Positions 7,898 to 45,503 of a stretch of 49,582 bases of DNA are shown here, piece after piece. The notes under the pieces were generated by a model. That model ran no database searches, was not told where the DNA came from, and saw nothing but the letters and a program-made list of their open reading frames with translations. The translations under genes and the position numbers were made by a program. This DNA comes from Thermoplasmatota archaeon (GTDB taxonomy: Archaea > Thermoplasmatota > Penumbrarchaeia > Penumbrarchaeales > Penumbrarchaeaceae): contig CBDDUX010000001.1 in assembly GCA_965234725.1 (NCBI GenBank), positions 1-49,582 on the forward strand, given 5' to 3'. Every line of letters begins with the position of its first letter. Position 1 is the first letter of the stretch.

Positions 7898-10024
7898 TCA
7901 CCCCTTCTCCTTTGTTAACAGTACCCTGACATCAACAGCCTTGACTCCCTTTCCTTTTTCATAAGCCACAAGGGGATTTATCTCAATATCGGAGATATCC
8001 CTGCATGACCTGATGAGAGAACCAAGTTTTGCTATAACCTCGATGACCGTATCGATATCCCTTTCCGGTTCACCCCTCACTCCAAGGAGAAGAGGATAGG
8101 CTTTGGTTTCCTTTATCATCCTCAGTATCTCCCTGCGGGTCGTTGGGAGGGCCCTGAACGATACTTCCTTCATTACCTCGACATATATGCCTCCAAGTCC
8201 GAACATTATTGTTGGTCCGAAATTTGGATCCTGTCTGGCCCCTATTATCGTCTCTGATGTGATCTTCACCATCTCCGCGACTTCAATACCTTCAATTACG
8301 GCATTTCTGTCATAGTTCCTGCAACTCGTCATAATGGCCTGATATGCATCGATAACTTCTTCCCGATTCACCAGATCAAGGGCCACTCCTCCAGCATCGG
8401 ATTTGTGTATAATGTCCTTGGAAACAATCTTCATGACAACAGGGAATCCGATATCTTCTGCAAGTGCAATTGTATCCTGTAGGTTCTTTGCAACTTCAGA
8501 CCTGGGAACAGGAACTCCGACAATCTCCATCAACTCCTTTGCCTCGTTAGCAAGGAGGAAGGTCCTCTCATCACTTCTTACTCGAGAGATGATCTCTGAT
8601 ATGCTTTCAATATCAAGTTCCGGTTCAAGTGAGGACTCTCTCTCCTCATTCCTTATTCGATAGAATTTGTACAACGCTCCCAGGACCTGGACAGCCTCGT
8701 CAACATCTCCAAAAACCGGGACTCCTTTGTCCCTTAGAATTGTTATAGCTCTTTCGACATTCCCTCCACCAAGAAGGGAGAAGACAATCGGTTTCCCTTT
8801 TTTCTGGTATGACTTGAAGTTCTCCTCCACCATTCTCGTAAGATTCTCCGAATCAAAGGTGGCTGTCTCACAATAGAGACCGATCATTGCGTCGATCTTA
8901 TCCGTTATTAAACCGGCACCAATTGCCAGATCATAATCCTCTGATACAGAACCCCCAGTGATATCGACAGGATTCTTGAGTGATCCAAAATCAGGTGTTG
9001 CATCCTTGAATATTTCCGTCATCAGGTTGATATCATCCAGGAGATTGACCTCATATTTCTCGCAGGCATCGGTTGCCATTACTCCCACACCTCCACCGTT
9101 GGTAACGATAACAGTGTTCTCTCCTTTGGGAATCGGTGCTGTAGCCAGGAACTTTGACCAGTTGAATGCCTCATCCAGGGTATCAGCTCTCATTACTCCG
9201 CATTGTTTCATTACCTTGTCGAACACCTTATCAGAACCTGCAAGAGAACCTGTATGGGAAGCTGCCGCCATAGCACCTCTCTTGGACCTCCCGGACTTGA
9301 TCACGATCACAGGTTTCTCCCTTGTAACCTTTTTAAGTGTCTTTAATAACCTCTCACCCTTCTGGACGCCTTCAATGTACATCATGATTACCTTTGTGTT
9401 GGAATCATACCTCAAGTATTGAAGGAGGTCCGTCTCATCCAGATCGGATTTGTTCCCGAGAGAGACCATTGTCGATAGACCGATATTTTCTATGGCTGTC
9501 TTGCCTATCATAGCAATACCTAATGCTCCGCTCTGGGTAATTATCCCCACATTTCCTGAAAGGACATCCTTGGAACCGAACGTTCCATTAAATTCAGATG
9601 CACCTGAATATATACCGAATATATTGGGACCAAGCACTCTCATTCCATGTTCATGGGCGTATTCCACAATATCTTGTTCTTCCTGTTTGTTGCCGACCTC
9701 GGAAAAACCCGATGTTATTATTACAAGGAACTTCACACCTTTTTGACCGCACTCCTTAACAGATCCAAAGACCGCCTTTGAGGGTATCGATATAACGGCC
9801 ATATCCACATCCCCTTCGATGTCAAGGATGGACTTTTTCATCTCCCTGCCAAGGGCCTCCCCACCTTTTGGGTTGATCCCATGTACCTCTCCTGCAAATC
9901 CCCCCGAAATGATGTTGTCCAATATCTTGTATCCGATCTTGCTAGGGTTGTTCGAGGCCCCTATAACCGCGACCGATCTTGGTTCGAAGAGATATCTAAT
10001 ATCTGGCATGTTGTCGATCATCAA
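7898..10024 (-). CDS. Acetate--CoA ligase (ADP-forming), fused alpha/beta
   Basis: PRSVAVIGAS, LGPNIFG, phospho-His motif ASHTGSLAGS, TNGGGVG, NPVDITG, ATP-grasp IIHKSDAGGV and DIEINPL. Confidence 0.92.
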   Translation of the reverse strand: MMIDNMPDIRYLFEPRSVAVIGASNNPSKIGYKILDNIISGGFAGEVHGINPKGGEALGREMKKSILDIEGDVDMAVISIPSKAVFGSVKECGQKGVKFLVIITSGFSEVGNKQEEQDIVEYAHEHGMRVLGPNIFGIYSGASEFNGTFGSKDVLSGNVGIITQSGALGIAMIGKTAIENIGLSTMVSLGNKSDLDETDLLQYLRYDSNTKVIMMYIEGVQKGERLLKTLKKVTREKPVIVIKSGRSKRGAMAAASHTGSLAGSDKVFDKVMKQCGVMRADTLDEAFNWSKFLATAPIPKGENTVIVTNGGGVGVMATDACEKYEVNLLDDINLMTEIFKDATPDFGSLKNPVDITGGSVSEDYDLAIGAGLITDKIDAMIGLYCETATFDSENLTRMVEENFKSYQKKGKPIVFSLLGGGNVERAITILRDKGVPVFGDVDEAVQVLGALYKFYRIRNEERESSLEPELDIESISEIISRVRSDERTFLLANEAKELMEIVGVPVPRSEVAKNLQDTIALAEDIGFPVVMKIVSKDIIHKSDAGGVALDLVNREEVIDAYQAIMTSCRNYDRNAVIEGIEVAEMVKITSETIIGARQDPNFGPTIMFGLGGIYVEVMKEVSFRALPTTRREILRMIKETKAYPLLLGVRGEPERDIDTVIEVIAKLGSLIRSCRDISDIEINPLVAYEKGKGVKAVDVRVLLTKEKG

Positions 10025-11928
10025 ATCCCTCTGAAAGCCATTTTCAATTCATATACTCCGGAACTGCTCTTTTTCTGGATATCGAAACCCATCTTCTCGA
10101 ACAGATGCAGCATGGAACTGTTCTCAAGAAGGACCTCTGCCGTGAATCCGAGAAGACCCCGTCTCTTTGCCAGAGTCGTCAGATACTGAAGAAGGACCGT
10201 GCCTATTCCCTTGTTCTGGTGATCGTCCCTTATTACAAAGGCCGCTTCAGCAGTATGAGAATGTTCATCAATACCGTACTGGGCTACTCCCAGGACCATT
10301 TCCATCTCACCCTTCTGATCTATCGCAAGGATAAGCATCTCTTTTGTATAGTCAATTATTACGAAATCCTGAAGCCTTTCATGTGGCATGTCCTTTCTGG
10401 ATGAAATAAATCTTCGGTAAATGGATTTGTCAGAAAGGGAATAGAAGAAATCTTTCAGGAGTGGTTCATCGGAGATCTTTACCGGCCTGAGCAGGATGGG
10501 ATCACCCTCCAATGTGGTCTTGTATGTCTCCAGATGTTCTGGGTACTCTCCCCTCTTTCCGGGAATGAATGCTTGGTCCTTGAAGATCAATCCAAGTTCC
10601 TTTGCCTGTTCGATAAGTGTCTTCCTGAATTTGGGATGTGCTATTGCTATTAGGTCCATAGCTCTCTCTCTGATATTTTTGCCATGGATGTAAGCGATTC
10701 CGTATTCCGTCACCACATAATGGACATCCCCACGGTTCAAGGTCACGCCTGCTCCTTCAGGGAGAAAAGGCACTATCCTTGAAACGGAATTGTCAATAGC
10801 TGCTGATCTAAGGACAAGGATAGTCTTCCCCCCCGGGGAAAGGGTTGCACCTCTCATGAAATCAGCCTGCCCGCCTATTCCACTGTAAAAAGTTGTACCG
10901 ATGGATTCAGCTGTGGCCTGGCCAGTAAGATCGATCTGAAGTGCTGAATTGATCGCAACCATTCTTCGGTTTTGGGCTATTGTCAGCGGATTGTTGACAT
11001 AATCAATGGTGTTAAACTCTACCGCAGGATTATCGTCGATGAACTCATACGTGGATGGCTTTCCCATGCAAAAAGAGGCGATCGATTTTCCCCGATGAAT
11101 GGATTTCTTATCATTGGTTATGATTCCCTTCCTCATCAGATCGGCAAGACCGTCAGTGAAAAGTTCTGTATGAACACCAAGGTCCTTCTTTTTATCAAGA
11201 TTTGATAGGATCGCATTTGGAATTGAACCGTATCCAACCTGGATGGTTTCTCCGTCCTCGATGATCCTGGCTACATATCCGCCGATGGATTGAGAAATAT
11301 CATCAGGGATGCTGGGTTCATATTCAAGCAAAGGTTCGTAATGTGGAACAATATAGTCCAAGTCCTCAATGTGGAGGAAAGTATTTCCATGGGTCCTGGG
11401 CATATAGCTGTTGACCTGGGCGATGACCAGTTTTGAGGATTCTACAGCTGCCTTCACTATATCCACACTGATGCCAAGACTAACATAACCATGTGGATCC
11501 GGTCTTGATACCTGAATCAGAGCTACATCCATTGGTTCCAATCCACTGTAGAACATCTCCGGCACCTGAGAAAGAAAGATCGGAGTATAATCTGCCAATC
11601 CGGTATTCACAGCATCTCTTGTATTGTTTCCAACGAAGAATGAATTGTGCCTGAAATTGGATTTGTACCTCTCATCCGTATATGGAGCTACACCCAGTGT
11701 CCATACATGGAATACCTCAGCATCGAAGAAGGCCTTGGGATGGGATTGTATGTAATTCATCATGGCCTTTATCAGATATTGAGGCTGCCCGCAACCTGTA
11801 CCAATGAATATCTTATCCCCTCTTCGGAACTTGTTGAAGAGGACTTCCTCGGGGACGACCTTGTCAGGATAGCGTTCAGCCCATCTCCTGAAATTTGCCT
11901 CCCTTATATCTGATTCTTCATCTGTCAA
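10021..11928 (-). CDS. Acetyl-CoA hydrolase/CoA-transferase fused to a C-terminal GNAT acetyltransferase
   Basis: IQVGYGSIPNA, GVHTELF, SGIGGQADF, VVTEYGIA; C-terminal LRPVKISD, AEAAFVIRDDHQNKGIG, MLHLFEKMGF. Confidence 0.9.
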   Translation of the reverse strand: MTDEESDIREANFRRWAERYPDKVVPEEVLFNKFRRGDKIFIGTGCGQPQYLIKAMMNYIQSHPKAFFDAEVFHVWTLGVAPYTDERYKSNFRHNSFFVGNNTRDAVNTGLADYTPIFLSQVPEMFYSGLEPMDVALIQVSRPDPHGYVSLGISVDIVKAAVESSKLVIAQVNSYMPRTHGNTFLHIEDLDYIVPHYEPLLEYEPSIPDDISQSIGGYVARIIEDGETIQVGYGSIPNAILSNLDKKKDLGVHTELFTDGLADLMRKGIITNDKKSIHRGKSIASFCMGKPSTYEFIDDNPAVEFNTIDYVNNPLTIAQNRRMVAINSALQIDLTGQATAESIGTTFYSGIGGQADFMRGATLSPGGKTILVLRSAAIDNSVSRIVPFLPEGAGVTLNRGDVHYVVTEYGIAYIHGKNIRERAMDLIAIAHPKFRKTLIEQAKELGLIFKDQAFIPGKRGEYPEHLETYKTTLEGDPILLRPVKISDEPLLKDFFYSLSDKSIYRRFISSRKDMPHERLQDFVIIDYTKEMLILAIDQKGEMEMVLGVAQYGIDEHSHTAEAAFVIRDDHQNKGIGTVLLQYLTTLAKRRGLLGFTAEVLLENSSMLHLFEKMGFDIQKKSSSGVYELKMAFRGI

Positions 11929-41412: not shown

Positions 41413-43416
41413 TTAGGAAAAAGTCTTCTTTTGGGAAGAATACATGGATACTACTTCATCGTCAGTTGTTGCATCTGTTGGACCTTTGTCCTTTCGGAAC
41501 CTCCCGGTAAACCTTGGAAAACGAAGACCAAGTCCGGCTCCTTCTTTCAATATATTGAAGGAGCAAGTATGGATCGGGGAGAAGGTTATCTCTGCGGCAA
41601 GGACCTCCAGAACCAATTCCGGACTTGTGTATACATCAGGTTCGATCTGGGATCGGACATTTTTCCAAACTGAGACTTTGTCACCTTTCATCTCATCCAC
41701 TTGACCGATCAAATAGGCCAGATGCTCATCATTGAACCCGCTTCCCAGTTTGCAGACCGTCCTGAAAATGCTTTCTTTCTCATCCCAAGTAGCCATAAGA
41801 AGCGCTCCATAGGTCCCTTTCCTCCTTCCTGTACCATAAAACGCCCCAACTACCACAAGATCAAGTGTATCCGAGAGCTCCGACCTGTAATCATTCTTGT
41901 ACTTCACCCATAGCCATCCCCTGCTTCCAGCCTGATAGATCGATGAATCCGAAATGTTCTTTGCCATTATCCCTTCACATCCGTCCTCGAGTGCTTTCTC
42001 GAAGAATGTGTTACCAACTTCTGGATCAGTAATGACCTCCATGGTCGAAAGTGATAGGCCCCTTTCCAGGTCGATCTCCTGATCAATTCCTGTAAATAGC
42101 TCCGTTATTGCCTTCCTTCGTGAAAGGTATGGCTGGTTGGTCATATCCTCCCCATTCTTGAATAGACAATCGAACATCACAAGAGAAACAGGGACCTCCT
42201 CTATCTTTTCATCCAGGCCATACTTCCGTCCCCTTCTCTGTGAAATGATCTGGAATGGTAGAAATGCTCCGGTATCAGGATCAACTGGAACACATTCACC
42301 CTCAACTATACAATCGATCCCCTTGAAGCTACTTTCCAAACTGGATCTGACGTCAGGGAACTGGTGGGTGATATCCTCCAGCTGCCTTGAGAATAATTTG
42401 ATCTTAGTGTTACCATTTTCATTGAACAAATGGACCTGGACCCTGAGGCCGTCGTACTTATATTCGAACGCAGAGGTTCCCCCCATCTTGTCCAAGATCT
42501 CCTCAACAGAGGACAATCTCTCACCTAACATCGAACGGAGAGGGATCCCCGGTCTTACACCGATCTCCAAGACGACATCCATGCCCTCCTCACCGAGCAT
42601 CCTTCCGATGGACCCTAGATCCGGATGAACATTGAAGGTCCTTGCAAGCTTCTCCCTATTTTCATTGACCTTGCCCTTCAATTTCTCAAGGATCTCGGTC
42701 ATCATCTTAGCGGTTTCCCTCGATAGGTTGTTCTTGTCCGGTTTGGATGATACGTATATCAATTCATAGAGGGGGCCTGTCCTCTTCGTTCCTATATTCC
42801 TGATCTCGTTCCTGAACCCTTCAATTCCTTCCAATCCTTCCAGGAGGGATCCGGCCTCTTCAAATCCGGGAGTGAAGAGATAGGAAAGGGCATCTATCAC
42901 TGTCATATCGGCTATCCCGAGTCTCATCTTTCCGCATAGGATCCTGGTAATATACCTCGCTTCAAGGGGAGTCGAATCATGCAGCATTTCAGCGATCAAT
43001 TTCAGTTTCAGGTCCTGTGATGATCTTCCTCCAGCCCTGGCGATCTTCTCAAGGTTCCCAAAGACACGATCAAGGGTCAGCGGTTCCTGGAAGAGTGACA
43101 TCTGTTTCTTGGAGCCGATGATAGCCTCTGCGAGAAGACCGATATCACCCTTCTTCTTCGATAGGTCCTCTATCTCATGGAATGGGACCATTGTTACCAT
43201 GTAGAGTGCTTTCATCGCCAGTTTCTCGGCAACACCAAGTTCCAGACCTTCATATCCGGGCTTCACCTCTCCCTTTGTCAACCTGATTATCATTTCGATA
43301 TCCGATGGAGACCTATCTTTCAGCAGATCTATCAATTCATCTGTCATCTCCAATCTTCCGGAGAGGTCCTCTATCCTGCCGTAATGGGAAGCTATCTCCG
43401 AAAACGGTGTGCCCAT
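41413..43416 (-). CDS. lig: ATP-dependent DNA ligase
   Basis: EYKYDGLRVQ (motif I), VEGE, FDCL, EGIMAK, WLWVKYK, DLVVVGA, LRFPRF; PIP-like QMSLF. Confidence 0.95.
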   Translation of the reverse strand: MGTPFSEIASHYGRIEDLSGRLEMTDELIDLLKDRSPSDIEMIIRLTKGEVKPGYEGLELGVAEKLAMKALYMVTMVPFHEIEDLSKKKGDIGLLAEAIIGSKKQMSLFQEPLTLDRVFGNLEKIARAGGRSSQDLKLKLIAEMLHDSTPLEARYITRILCGKMRLGIADMTVIDALSYLFTPGFEEAGSLLEGLEGIEGFRNEIRNIGTKRTGPLYELIYVSSKPDKNNLSRETAKMMTEILEKLKGKVNENREKLARTFNVHPDLGSIGRMLGEEGMDVVLEIGVRPGIPLRSMLGERLSSVEEILDKMGGTSAFEYKYDGLRVQVHLFNENGNTKIKLFSRQLEDITHQFPDVRSSLESSFKGIDCIVEGECVPVDPDTGAFLPFQIISQRRGRKYGLDEKIEEVPVSLVMFDCLFKNGEDMTNQPYLSRRKAITELFTGIDQEIDLERGLSLSTMEVITDPEVGNTFFEKALEDGCEGIMAKNISDSSIYQAGSRGWLWVKYKNDYRSELSDTLDLVVVGAFYGTGRRKGTYGALLMATWDEKESIFRTVCKLGSGFNDEHLAYLIGQVDEMKGDKVSVWKNVRSQIEPDVYTSPELVLEVLAAEITFSPIHTCSFNILKEGAGLGLRFPRFTGRFRKDKGPTDATTDDEVVSMYSSQKKTFS

Positions 43417-43530: not shown

Positions 43531-43776
43531 ATGTTAATGGATGAATTCAGGACCTGGTTCTCAAAGATGTTCCTCAATTTCGATGAGGGGAATTTGAGGG
43601 AGGCCCTATACTGTTCTGATATGGCCCTCTACAGCGCAGAGAGGACCCAAAATGAACCTCCACACGAGGATCTCGGCAAGGTCTATTTGTTGAGAGGTAG
43701 CATACTGGACCGTCTGGGTAAAAGTAAAGAAGCAGTACACTGTTTCCGAATCGTTGAAGACCTGAAAGGGTTCTAG
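43531..43776 (+). CDS. Small TPR-like hypothetical protein
   Basis: GNLREALYC and YLLRGSILDRLGKSKEAVHCF fit the TPR pattern; ttataa box ~20 nt upstream. Confidence 0.6.
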   Translation: MLMDEFRTWFSKMFLNFDEGNLREALYCSDMALYSAERTQNEPPHEDLGKVYLLRGSILDRLGKSKEAVHCFRIVEDLKGF

Positions 43777-43829: not shown

Positions 43830-43905
43830 GCCCCGATGGTGTAGCGGCCTATCATATTGGCCTGTCGAGCCAATGACACGGATTCAAATTCCGTTCGGGG
43901 CGCCA
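43830..43905 (+). tRNA. tRNA-Asp(GTC), CCA encoded
   Basis: Acceptor GCCCCGA/TCGGGGC, anticodon arm ttggc-ctGTCga-gccaa, T arm acgga-ttcaaat-tccgt, discriminator G then CCA. Confidence 0.95.
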
Positions 43906-44088
43906 TTTATCCTTTTTCCGTTCAAATCATCTTATTATCAGAAGTAAAAGGATCTATGAAGATCGAATTTGAATCTATATCCAAAAACCGCTTGATGCTG
44001 TTTTGAAATAGAGGAAAATTAAAATCCATTGATTTACAACAGTATCTCATGAATGGATTTTAATAGGTTGTACATTTCTCCTTAACCC

Positions 44089-45294
44089 GTGTCAAAGACC
44101 GTTCCGAAGAGGGTCCTGAAAGGCAACAAACCTCCATTCTCAAGGAGGATCATCAAGGAATCAAAGGAAATCGGACTTTATCCGTATTTCATTCCGATCT
44201 CGGGTCAGCAGGGACATAGAGTTACGATCAACGGAAAGGATACCGTGATGCTGGGATCGAACAACTATCTTGGCATGACGGAACATCCTGAAGTAAAAAA
44301 AGCTGCAAAGGATGCCATAGATAAATATGGTGTTGGCTGCACGGGTTCCAGATATCTGAATGGAACCCTTGAAATCCATCTCCAGATGGAAGAAGAACTA
44401 GCTGAGTTCATGGGGAGCGAGAGTGCGCTCATGTTCTCAACCGGTTACCAGACCAATGTCGGCACCATATGGTCTTTGGTGGGTAAGCATGATATTGTTC
44501 TCTCCGATCAATACAATCATGCTTCCATTGTAGACGGTTGCAGAATGGCAAAACCCGAGGTCCTTGTCTATGACCACAACGATATGGACTCCTTCCGGGA
44601 ATGTGTATCGAATATGGACCCGGATAAAGGCGCCCTGGTGATAACCGATGGACTTTTCTCAATGGAAGGAGACTTGGCCAAACTTCCGGTGATCGTCGAT
44701 ATATGCAACAAGGAAGATATCCTGATCATGGTTGATGACGCCCACTCCATCGGGGTCCTGGGCAACCATGGAGAAGGTACTGCCAATCATTTTGGTCTGG
44801 AAGTTGACATCACCATGGGAACATTTTCGAAGTCATTCGCTTCCATGGGAGGCTTCATCTCCGGTAACGAGGACCTCCTTACCGATATCAAGCATTCTTC
44901 AAGGACGTTGATGTTCTCGGCCGCTCCACCTCCGGCAAATGTCGCTACTGCAATGAAGGCAATGCACCTGATCATGGATGAACCTGAACATAGGAGGAAT
45001 CTCTGGAGGAATGCCAAATACCTCAACAATGGTCTAAAGAAGATGGGATTGGATACGGGTCACACTGAAAGCCCGATAATTCCTGTGATCATTGGCGAGG
45101 ATGTACATACCGTTGCCTGGTGGCGAATGCTCCTGGATAGAGGAGTATACACCAATCCGGTAGTATACCCGGCTACCCCTCGGGACAGGAACCTCATAAG
45201 GACCTCAGTAATGGCTACTCATACAATAGAGGACCTTGATCAGGTCCTTTCCGTATTCGAAGAGGTCCTGAAGATCCTTCCTTTCGATGATTGA
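44089..45294 (+). CDS. PLP-dependent alpha-oxoamine synthase, serine palmitoyltransferase-like
   Basis: LYPYF, MLGSNNYLG, GCTGSRYLNGT, FSTGYQTN, NHASI, DGLFSMEGD, VDDAH, GTFSKS (PLP Lys), FSAAPPP. Confidence 0.85.
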   Translation: MSKTVPKRVLKGNKPPFSRRIIKESKEIGLYPYFIPISGQQGHRVTINGKDTVMLGSNNYLGMTEHPEVKKAAKDAIDKYGVGCTGSRYLNGTLEIHLQMEEELAEFMGSESALMFSTGYQTNVGTIWSLVGKHDIVLSDQYNHASIVDGCRMAKPEVLVYDHNDMDSFRECVSNMDPDKGALVITDGLFSMEGDLAKLPVIVDICNKEDILIMVDDAHSIGVLGNHGEGTANHFGLEVDITMGTFSKSFASMGGFISGNEDLLTDIKHSSRTLMFSAAPPPANVATAMKAMHLIMDEPEHRRNLWRNAKYLNNGLKKMGLDTGHTESPIIPVIIGEDVHTVAWWRMLLDRGVYTNPVVYPATPRDRNLIRTSVMATHTIEDLDQVLSVFEEVLKILPFDD

Positions 45295-45357: not shown

Positions 45358-45439
45358 GCGGGGGTACTCTAGCGGTCAAAGAGGCAGGACTTAGGATCCT
45401 GTGGTTAGTCCTTCGAGGGTTCAAATCCCTTCCCCCGCA
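45358..45439 (+). tRNA. tRNA-Leu(TAG)
   Basis: Acceptor GCGGGGG/CCCCCGC, anticodon arm cagga-ctTAGga-tcctg, long variable arm, gaggg-ttcaaat-ccctt, discriminator A. Confidence 0.95.
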
Positions 45440-45503
45440 CTAAATTTTCATCCATTAGTAACGAAGTGGATAATGGATGTTGAATTGGGAGGGATTTGAA
45501 CCC
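45417..45503. repeat. Long inverted repeat pairing the tRNA-Leu T arm with its 3' trailer
   Basis: gggttcaaatccct (45417-30) / agggatttgaaccc (45490-503); inner catccatta (45449-57) / taatggatg (45471-79). Confidence 0.8.

Follow-up and report, generated by a model that had tools for sequence, protein, structure and literature searches.

Sphingolipids are regarded as a lipid class of eukaryotes and, more recently, as one widespread among bacteria; to our knowledge they are not known from archaea. The window analysed here, a stretch of 49,582 nucleotides from a Thermoplasmatota archaeon (assembly GCA_965234725.1, contig CBDDUX010000001.1), encodes on its forward strand, at positions 44089–45294, a protein resembling bacterial serine palmitoyltransferase (SPT), a pyridoxal phosphate (PLP)-dependent alpha-oxoamine synthase (AOS). 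This kind of enzyme is already known; what is new is its archaeal setting, the conserved clade to which it belongs and the ceramide-type-looking operons found in that clade. An environmental survey reported no archaeal sphingolipid producers among Black Sea metagenome-assembled genomes (MAGs) (PMC11334938). Literature searches, judged by title and abstract, found no report of an archaeal SPT; the supplementary Spt tables of PMC11334938, which lie outside this scope, could list archaeal homologues that fall outside the "Spt-like" clade of that study. The string "Thermoplasm" is absent from the main text of PMC12619533, a study that queried sediment metagenomes.

The closest described relative is the SPT of Sphingobacterium multivorum (PDB 3A2B and the 8GUH series), the best PDB match of the window protein (417 bits, E = 6e-124, residues 20–395). 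Identity along the alignment is about one half (a hand count gives 53 of the first 102 positions), and both proteins are of the same length class, soluble and free of extra domains. The residues described for the bacterial enzyme as contacting PLP, the serine carboxylate, the serine hydroxyl and the acyl pocket (PMC10196870) are shared, except F83Y and F338V. The archaeal protein differs in an N-terminus about six residues longer, in its host, and in scoring below the NCBIfam cut-off for SPTs of the CFB type. The Bacteroidales SPTs of the BT_0870 type (Parabacteroides distasonis WP_005854840, Bacteroides finegoldii WP_007753371) are 44.7–47.7% identical to it by tblastn and carry YPYF and GSRFLNGT motifs as in the archaeal SPT-like sequences. 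Their gene divergently adjoins a diacylglycerol-kinase-family gene (P. distasonis, locus L012 2789–3760; B. finegoldii, L014), whereas the archaeal gene of the window type ("type 1", see below) has only tRNAs beside it. The Sphingomonas paucimobilis-type SPT (S. parapaucimobilis WP_042486022; 40.3% identity) shares the loop G-S-R-x-L-N-G-T and does not have YPYF, with T, F and A at positions 31, 33 and 34. This proteobacterial gene is clustered with a dedicated acyl carrier protein (ACP) and an NAD(P)H-binding reductase resembling the ceramide reductase CerR, which the archaeal type-1 gene is not. More distant members of the enzyme family, KBL and BioF, have the fold and the catalytic His, Asp, His, Lys and Arg in common with the window protein; they have a different pocket loop and form separate clades, and their union with the archaeal sequences is rejected by the topology tests below. 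Finally, the cysteate fatty acyltransferases (CFAT/SulA/CapB) of sulfonolipid synthesis combine an SPT-like scaffold and a long-chain acyl donor with a remodelled side-chain pocket, and Asn117 is named as specific to SPT (PMC13692747). The archaeal protein retains the SPT-type N123 and S87, and its scores against CFAT structures are much lower (233–252 bits).

The gene is a single open reading frame (ORF) with a GTG start, encoding 401 amino acids without an internal stop. In Pfam its product matches the broad Aminotran_1_2 family only (PF00155, E = 4.5e-53). Compared with a 95%-identical orthologue, the dN/dS ratio is 0.049 at a dS of 0.51, more distant pairs being saturated at synonymous sites. 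From the Pfam match and the dN/dS ratio we conclude that this is a real gene; it is intact, strongly conserved and under purifying selection. The three motifs on which the original prediction of an SPT-like enzyme was built are present in the translation: YPYF (Y31–F34; 44179–44190), GCTGSRYLNGT (44335–44367) and GTFSKS (44818–44835), all on the forward strand. GTFSKS holds the PLP Schiff-base lysine K248 (44830–44832), and GSRYLNGT (G86–T93; 44344–44367, delimited from the translation and a 62-row alignment) is the substrate-pocket loop contributed by the partner subunit.

Active-site residues were mapped by alignment to 8GUH, using the positions named for S. multivorum SPT in PMC10196870. 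All 19 mapped active-site and pocket positions are kept or conservatively replaced, with the sole exception of F338, which is V342 in the archaeal protein. Those kept include Y31, Y33 and F34 (Tyr25, Tyr27 and Phe28 in S. multivorum), N58 (Asn52) and N123 (Asn117), and G86-S87-R88-Y89-L90-N91 corresponds to Gly80 to Asn85 with Phe83 replaced by Tyr. H144 (H138), S191 (S185), D216 (D210), A218 (A212), H219 (H213), T245 (Thr241), S247 (Ser243), K248 (K244), M275 (M271), F276 (F272) and the family arginine R371 are likewise kept. Tyr27, the equivalent of Y33, belongs to the wall of the acyl-chain pocket, and the serine-contacting residues N58, G86, S87, S247 and N123 are all SPT-like in the window protein (PMC10196870).

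The protein thus has the residues of a fold-type I PLP-dependent AOS, namely the Schiff-base lysine K248, the stacking H144, the pair D216/H219 at N1 and O3' of the pyridine ring, and the carboxylate-binding R371. These catalytic residues are invariant in every group of the 62-row alignment, and are therefore uninformative on specificity. The pocket loop, judged from the same alignment, does set SPT sequences apart from KBL and BioF: G-S-R-x-L-N-G-T is found in 13/13 Thermoplasmatota SPT-like, 3/3 Bacteroidales SPT and 8/8 CFB-like bacterial rows and in the Sphingomonas SPT, while four clade-mates of the latter keep G-S-R-x-L-N-G, followed by T in three and S in one. KBL rows have V87 (8/9), I90 (9/9) and A91 (8/9), and BioF rows I, V or T at position 90 and S, T or A at 91. 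We take the loop asparagine to be the equivalent of Asn100 of S. paucimobilis SPT. Y31, Y33 and F34 are also invariant in the 13 archaeal SPT-like and the 11 Bacteroidales or CFB-like rows, whereas KBL and BioF sequences have other residues there. Position 89, the equivalent of Phe83 in the acyl-pocket wall, varies among the three archaeal subclades (Y, F or L).

Family scores point the same way. The best NCBIfam family is SerpalmtaseCFB (NF047600; 490.5 bits), followed by TIGR01825 (420.2), KBL (380.4), the beta-proteobacterial SPT model NF047599 (378.9) and BioF (371), all below their cut-offs. The curated SPT equivalog cut-offs are at least 640 for NF047600, 500 for NF047599 and 670 for NF047603 (score 324.9), so that none is reached; nor are those of the two KBL models (380.4 against 460; 296.8 against 493) or of BioF (426.45). 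Among PDB structures, the runners-up at 279–288 bits are a Thermus KBL/AONS (8-amino-7-oxononanoate synthase; 287) and Sphingomonas-type SPTs (279–288), and lower still are E. coli KBL (229) and the CFATs (7u7h, 251.8; 28eh, 233). To place the NF047600 score, 108 proteins were scanned: 16 of 39 archaeal-clade matches and 15 of 80 bacterial matches (clustered at 72% identity), 75 of the best 150 representatives at 50% identity that have 370–470 amino acids, and E. coli BioF and Kbl. Archaeal rows scored 440–510 and the nearest bacterial rows 521–625. None of the 106 relatives other than the E. coli proteins reached 640, and the cut-off therefore defines a narrower Bacteroidota group. In other Thermoplasmatota families bit score alone fails to part SPT-like from KBL-like copies, so only sequences placed by the tree or by their operon were counted as SPT-like. 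Copies in four genomes (G010, G199, G373 and G050) score 330–340 bits but fall in the KBL clade of the 62-row tree.

Trees were anchored with E. coli BioF and Kbl, a tdh-linked Bacillus Kbl and the BioF of a bioA-bioF-bioD cluster in Alicyclobacillus. The SPT anchors, which are orthologues of validated SPTs rather than the assayed proteins themselves, were Bacteroidales sequences with a diacylglycerol-kinase-family neighbour and the SPT of S. parapaucimobilis, which has ACP and NAD(P)H-binding genes next to it; the trees were built without CFAT sequences. A quick 115-row tree, from which 73 multidomain, 2 short and 4 partial representatives were left out, placed the window clade inside the span of validated SPTs with a support of 80. 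In the 62-row tree (LG+G4; ultrafast bootstrap/Shimodaira–Hasegawa-like approximate likelihood ratio test, SH-aLRT), BioF (97/90) and KBL (99/98) formed clades of their own, apart from a 48-row remainder (95/66). Thermoplasmatota SPT-like sequences form a clade of 13 rows within that remainder (98/99). One of its two parts comes from a second family, f21 (100/100), the other from the window's family, f1 (100/98). The f1 part splits into type 2 (100/100) and type 1 (100/100), which includes the window gene. Under the site-heterogeneous mixture model LG+C20, in a quick search with SH-aLRT as its only support measure, the 13 rows joined the Bacteroidales SPTs in a 28-row clade (95), which in turn joined the Sphingomonas SPT clade to make 41 rows (94). 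Approximately unbiased (AU) tests, for groups named after a tree had been seen, rejected holding the 13 rows with KBL (delta lnL 80.4, p-AU 0.00074) or with BioF (delta lnL 87.6, p-AU 0.00081). The expectation of the original prediction, that the protein lies nearer to bacterial SPTs of the Bacteroidota/Sphingobacterium and Sphingomonas types than to KBL or BioF, is thus borne out by profile and PDB scores, by the loop and by the trees and AU tests; no clustering with KBL or BioF was found. The window protein is nested among bacterial sequences, which makes a bacterial origin of the gene plausible.

Our preferred reading, to which we give a probability of roughly one half, is that the ORF encodes an active, homodimeric SPT-type PLP-dependent AOS of old bacterial origin that makes a 3-keto long-chain base. 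L-serine would form an external aldimine on K248 and be deprotonated; the deprotonated aldimine would then attack a long-chain acyl thioester (acyl-CoA or acyl-ACP) with decarboxylation. The reaction is predicted to yield a long-chain amino alcohol with a 3-keto group, similar in type to 3-ketosphinganine, which may feed a pool of sphingolipid-like or other amino-lipids beside the isoprenoid ether lipids. In this scheme we infer serine as the amino acid, the length and the carrier of the acyl chain, and what becomes of the product.

The distribution of the gene bears on its history. Among 401 Thermoplasmatota genomes sampled, copies at 59% identity or more are confined to the window's family, where they occur in 12 of the 23 other genomes; this count is a lower bound, because two other genomes break at this spot. 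Type 1 is present in 11 other genomes of four genera and type 2 in two (G065 and G114). A further match, widespread and scoring about 300 bits at some 41% identity, corresponds to the KBL-type paralogue discussed below. In the window the type-1 gene lies between tRNA-Asp(GTC) (43830–43905) and tRNA-Leu(TAG) (45358–45440), both called by ARAGORN on the forward strand; with the two tRNAs flanking it on its own strand, it is the sole protein gene between them, as originally described. Both flanking tRNAs are kept in 9 of the 11 other type-1 genomes, and each taken singly in 10: in one genome with tRNA-Asp only, the contig ends inside the gene, and in one with tRNA-Leu only, no tRNA is called in the 548 nt upstream. 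Four loci returned by a single-protein search for related loci duplicate four of these 11 genomes. Wherever the flank is long enough, the next gene is that of an ATP-dependent DNA ligase (in the window, 41413–43416 on the reverse strand; TIGR00574, 452 bits), which serves as a synteny anchor only and has no part in the proposed function. The GC content of the SPT-like gene, 0.48, equals that of its neighbours.

Collectively, conserved synteny, normal GC content and dN/dS point to an old acquisition from bacteria followed by vertical descent, with no sign of a recent island. The gene would have entered the ancestor of these Thermoplasmatota long ago and then been inherited vertically in one family; by these measures it appears old in the lineage and no recent import. 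Of the earlier description of an acquired gene, the bacterial origin stays plausible, and any notion of a recent or isolated import is contradicted by synteny, GC content and vertical descent. One genome of the same genus without the type-1 gene (G119) has, on contig C30 (L082 1–650), about 650 nt beside tRNA-Asp up to the contig end, made up of about three copies of a repeat of some 200 nt. In one study, two RNA-library runs each yielded a single short contig that maps to the window gene, covering 44015–44249 (13 differences in 235 nt, 94.5% identity) and 44840–45073 (3 differences in 234 nt, 98.7% identity). Since such libraries may hold DNA, these contigs hint only weakly at transcription of the gene or of its copy in a close relative.

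The genomic contexts of the clade-mates suggest a role in acyl metabolism. In all three f21 genomes examined, the SPT-like gene stands in an operon of constant order, second after an AMP-binding ligase and followed by an adh_short reductase and then two to three hexapeptide-repeat acyltransferases (G204 contig C11, L080 221–7485; G234 contig C54, L079 3273–11885; G195 contig C18, L081). The operon is flanked either by an arylsulfotransferase downstream or by a sulfotransferase and an epimerase-family gene divergently upstream. In bacteria, the ceramide pathway consists of Spt, the ceramide synthase bCerS and CerR, encoded in Caulobacter as AasR-AcpR-Spt-CerR-CerS (PMC11087976, PMC11324152). 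Compared with the pathway as outlined there, the f21 operon appears to follow the same logic of acyl activation, condensation, keto-reduction and N-acylation. The parts differ: the candidate f21 acyltransferases are hexapeptide-repeat (LbH) proteins unrelated to the bacterial ones, and the reductase is a classical short-chain dehydrogenase/reductase (SDR) rather than an NDUFA9-like CerR. The f21 operon is best described as a candidate for an independent ceramide-like, possibly sulfated-lipid, pathway. None of its partner genes is linked to the window's type-1 gene.

The type-2 copy, whose product is 59–60% identical to that of the window gene, lies in both of its genomes behind a polyketide synthase (PKS)-like ORF (partial ketosynthase plus ACP domain) and then a cis-prenyltransferase, both upstream of it (G065 contig C43, L070 21–5197; G114 contig C12, L071 731–6147). 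The next neighbour downstream is a PlsC-like acyltransferase or a patatin-like lipase. The ketosynthase-to-ACP ORF matches, at 59.6% identity, an internal stretch of a large megasynthase of the window genome, a PfaA-like protein of 3740 amino acids with ketosynthase, acyltransferase, six tandem ACP, ketoreductase and dehydratase domains and a C-terminal phosphopantetheinyl transferase (contig C54, 15325–26547; L063 326–11548). Its presence in 22 of the 24 family genomes shows that it is not contamination. Surface proteins and a 2-oxoacid:ferredoxin oxidoreductase are encoded next to it, and no PfaB-, PfaC- or PfaD-like genes adjoin it.

The original prediction had also called for a search of the genome for partner enzymes. 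Seven AMP-binding ligase matches, possible sources of acyl donors, are present, and all the ACP domains found belong to the megasynthase. PlsC-type acyltransferases are of the ester-lipid type and unusual in archaea. One lies on contig C62 (14180–17876; L064 10681–14377) beside an epimerase/3-beta-hydroxysteroid dehydrogenase (HSD)-type reductase and an acetyl-CoA-synthetase-like ligase, with orthologues at 53% identity or more in 14 of the 24 family genomes; a second PlsC-like gene lies on C35. Two diacylglycerol-kinase-family kinases were found, on C44 (27.7% identical to the one of Parabacteroides) and on C108. These candidate downstream enzymes (the PlsC-like protein and reductase of C62 and the two kinases) are generic and unlinked to the type-1 gene. 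Two NCBIfam families considered as ceramide enzymes, NF047601 and NF047602, proved to be MscS channel families.

Several observations weigh against our preferred reading. The NF047600 score lies below the curated SPT cut-off, and the LG+G4 tree has a polytomy where the archaeal clade meets the two lineages of validated SPTs; the LG+C20 grouping comes from the quick search, and the AU groups were defined with a tree in view. The gene's own locus has no partner gene, only tRNAs. In the genome, no convincing ceramide-reductase homologue was found (the best match to the Sphingomonas CerR-like protein has 25% identity), and the Acetyltransf_5 profile (PF13444) gave at best 18.8 bits, below its cut-off, a weak negative given that this profile stood in for bCerS, whose membership of that family is uncertain, and no bCerS sequence served as query. 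The f21 reductase and hexapeptide acyltransferases have no close counterparts in the genome either, the best matches reaching 40% identity over 179 amino acids and 35% over 112. Co-occurrence is also unspecific, the type-1 gene being compared with a megasynthase in 22 of 24 family genomes and a C62 PlsC-like/SDR pair in 14 of 24. Lastly, amino-acid specificity is not certain from sequence; CFAT enzymes share the scaffold (PMC13692747).

Beyond the enzyme itself, it is a tentative proposal, and one that we judge less likely than not, that some Thermoplasmatota make sphingoid-type lipids, the type-1 enzyme condensing serine with chains from ligases or the megasynthase and the f21 operon forming a complete ceramide-like route that arose independently of bCerS/CerR and of eukaryotic CerS. 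Acyl chains for the type-1 enzyme might be activated by the acyl ligases or built on the family-wide PfaA-like megasynthase, and the products of the f21 operon might be sulfated, as are lipids found in anoxic marine lipidomes. The window gene is itself a hint of sphingolipid-like lipids in some archaea. An SPT-like clade conserved across two Thermoplasmatota families, accompanied by acyl ligases, reductases, acyltransferases and PKS-type machinery for acyl-ACP, bears on the "lipid divide", that is, on how strictly isoprenoid-only archaeal membranes are. If the proposal is true, sphingoid-type lipids would add to the isoprenoid ethers a third kind of membrane-lipid chemistry in archaea, and archaea would be possible sources of the sedimentary long-chain-base lipids used as biomarkers.

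Of the alternatives, the one that fares best is the same long-chain condensation with another amino acid (glycine, alanine, cysteate or other) or an unusual acyl donor (a polyketide-type chain from the PfaA-like megasynthase, or an isoprenoid-derived acyl-CoA), giving a 1-deoxy, sulfonated or otherwise non-canonical long-chain base. S. multivorum SPT itself takes Ala, Gly and homoserine at low efficiency (PMC10196870), and CFATs perform their reaction on the same scaffold (PMC13692747). An unusual acyl donor would fit a genome whose only ACP domains sit in a PKS-like megasynthase and a type-2 copy directly behind a PKS-like gene; the sulfotransferases flanking the f21 operon and the variable acyl-pocket position 89 also favour a non-canonical product. 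Set against this are the serine-contacting residues N58, G86, S87, S247 and N123, all of SPT type by the mapping to PMC10196870, and the CFAT structures' 233–252 bits against 417 for SPT, the CFAT pocket being compared through these scores and N123/S87 only. We regard a different substrate as unlikely, though a serious competitor to serine.

Considerably less probable is that the protein is a small-molecule or signal synthase, either making a CqsA-like alpha-hydroxyketone or aminoketone autoinducer or off-loading a secondary metabolite. PKS- or nonribosomal peptide synthetase-fused or -linked AOSs are common among the nearest representatives, 73 of the best 150 being longer than 470 amino acids; the type-2 copy is PKS-linked, and the type-1 gene has no linked downstream lipid enzymes. 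CqsA is a poor match, however, scoring 222 bits as an NCBIfam family against 490 for SPT and 123 bits among PDB structures. The neighbours of the clade-mates (PlsC-like acyltransferase, patatin, acyl ligase, reductase and acyltransferases) resemble lipid-building sets, and a stable, single-copy, core-like gene at a conserved chromosomal site in four genera is not what one typically sees in accessory biosynthetic clusters.

A housekeeping KBL (glycine C-acetyltransferase of threonine catabolism) or BioF (biotin synthesis) that merely resembles SPT is very improbable: the AOS family is notoriously hard to sub-classify, JGI labels several relatives "8-amino-7-oxononanoate synthase" and the KBL and BioF models still score 371–380 bits, yet both cut-offs are missed (380 against 460; 371 against 426), the AU tests reject both placements, the pocket loop differs, and the genome holds a separate KBL-clade paralogue, with no BioB or BioD found in it. 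The original prediction had noted that no bio or tdh gene adjoins the SPT-like gene; the window annotation agrees, and the observation extends to the genome (97.65% complete), where searches found no BioB (best 45 bits against a cut-off of 225), no BioD and no zinc-type Tdh at E ≤ 1e-20. The paralogue, on C47, is of KBL type (TIGR01825, 483 bits; KBL, 441) and falls with other Thermoplasmatota copies in the KBL clade of the 62-row tree. Given this paralogue, and with no BioB, BioD or zinc-type Tdh found, the SPT-like gene of the window is not needed for the housekeeping roles. A gene on C5 is 49% identical to an epimerase-type gene adjoining a KBL-type copy in Halobellus, and by this homology may encode an SDR-type threonine dehydrogenase.

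The genome holds three AOSs in all. The third, on C108 (26177–31295; L004 10178–15296), fits no curated family (BioF is best, at 333 bits) and heads a tight operon with overlapping starts: AOS, a diacylglycerol-kinase/YegS-type lipid kinase, an NAD-epimerase/3-beta-HSD-type reductase, a radical SAM/SPASM protein and a UbiA prenyltransferase resembling digeranylgeranylglyceryl phosphate (DGGGP) synthase. The same operon occurs on contig C14 of genome G190 (L087 4016–9410). Its kinase is found in 4 of the 24 family genomes, and the other three show the same gene order over as much of the operon as their contigs cover. As a speculation, this operon might make a phosphorylated amino-alcohol backbone for subsequent prenylation. 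No specific phyletic link was seen between the type-1 gene and the C108 operon in these four of 24 genomes.

The host is a Thermoplasmatota archaeon with an assembly of 3.54 Mb in 114 contigs, and the whole stretch is present in one run only, a marine sediment metagenome. The window carries archaeal markers (FEN-1, MCM, the archaeosine enzyme RaSEA, NAC and the ATP-dependent DNA ligase), and the DGGGP-synthase-like UbiA protein and geranylgeranyl reductase family protein that the original prediction had reported are both encoded in it. Every close homologue that carries a name is a MAG protein labelled "Thermoplasmatota" or "Thermoplasmatales" (6/6 named rows among P0002–P0040; 4/4 related loci). 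Between the ligase gene and tRNA-Asp lies an 81-amino-acid ORF (43531–43776, forward strand) without a family match, which is 86% identical in the nearest genome and has a homologue in G119. Farther off, a gene at 10021–11928 on the reverse strand encodes a 635-amino-acid protein that joins a butyryl-CoA:acetate CoA-transferase-like part (residues 85–446) to a C-terminal Pat-like acetyltransferase part (474–619), and adjoins genes for an ADP-forming acyl-CoA synthetase and a CBS/DRTGG-type protein.

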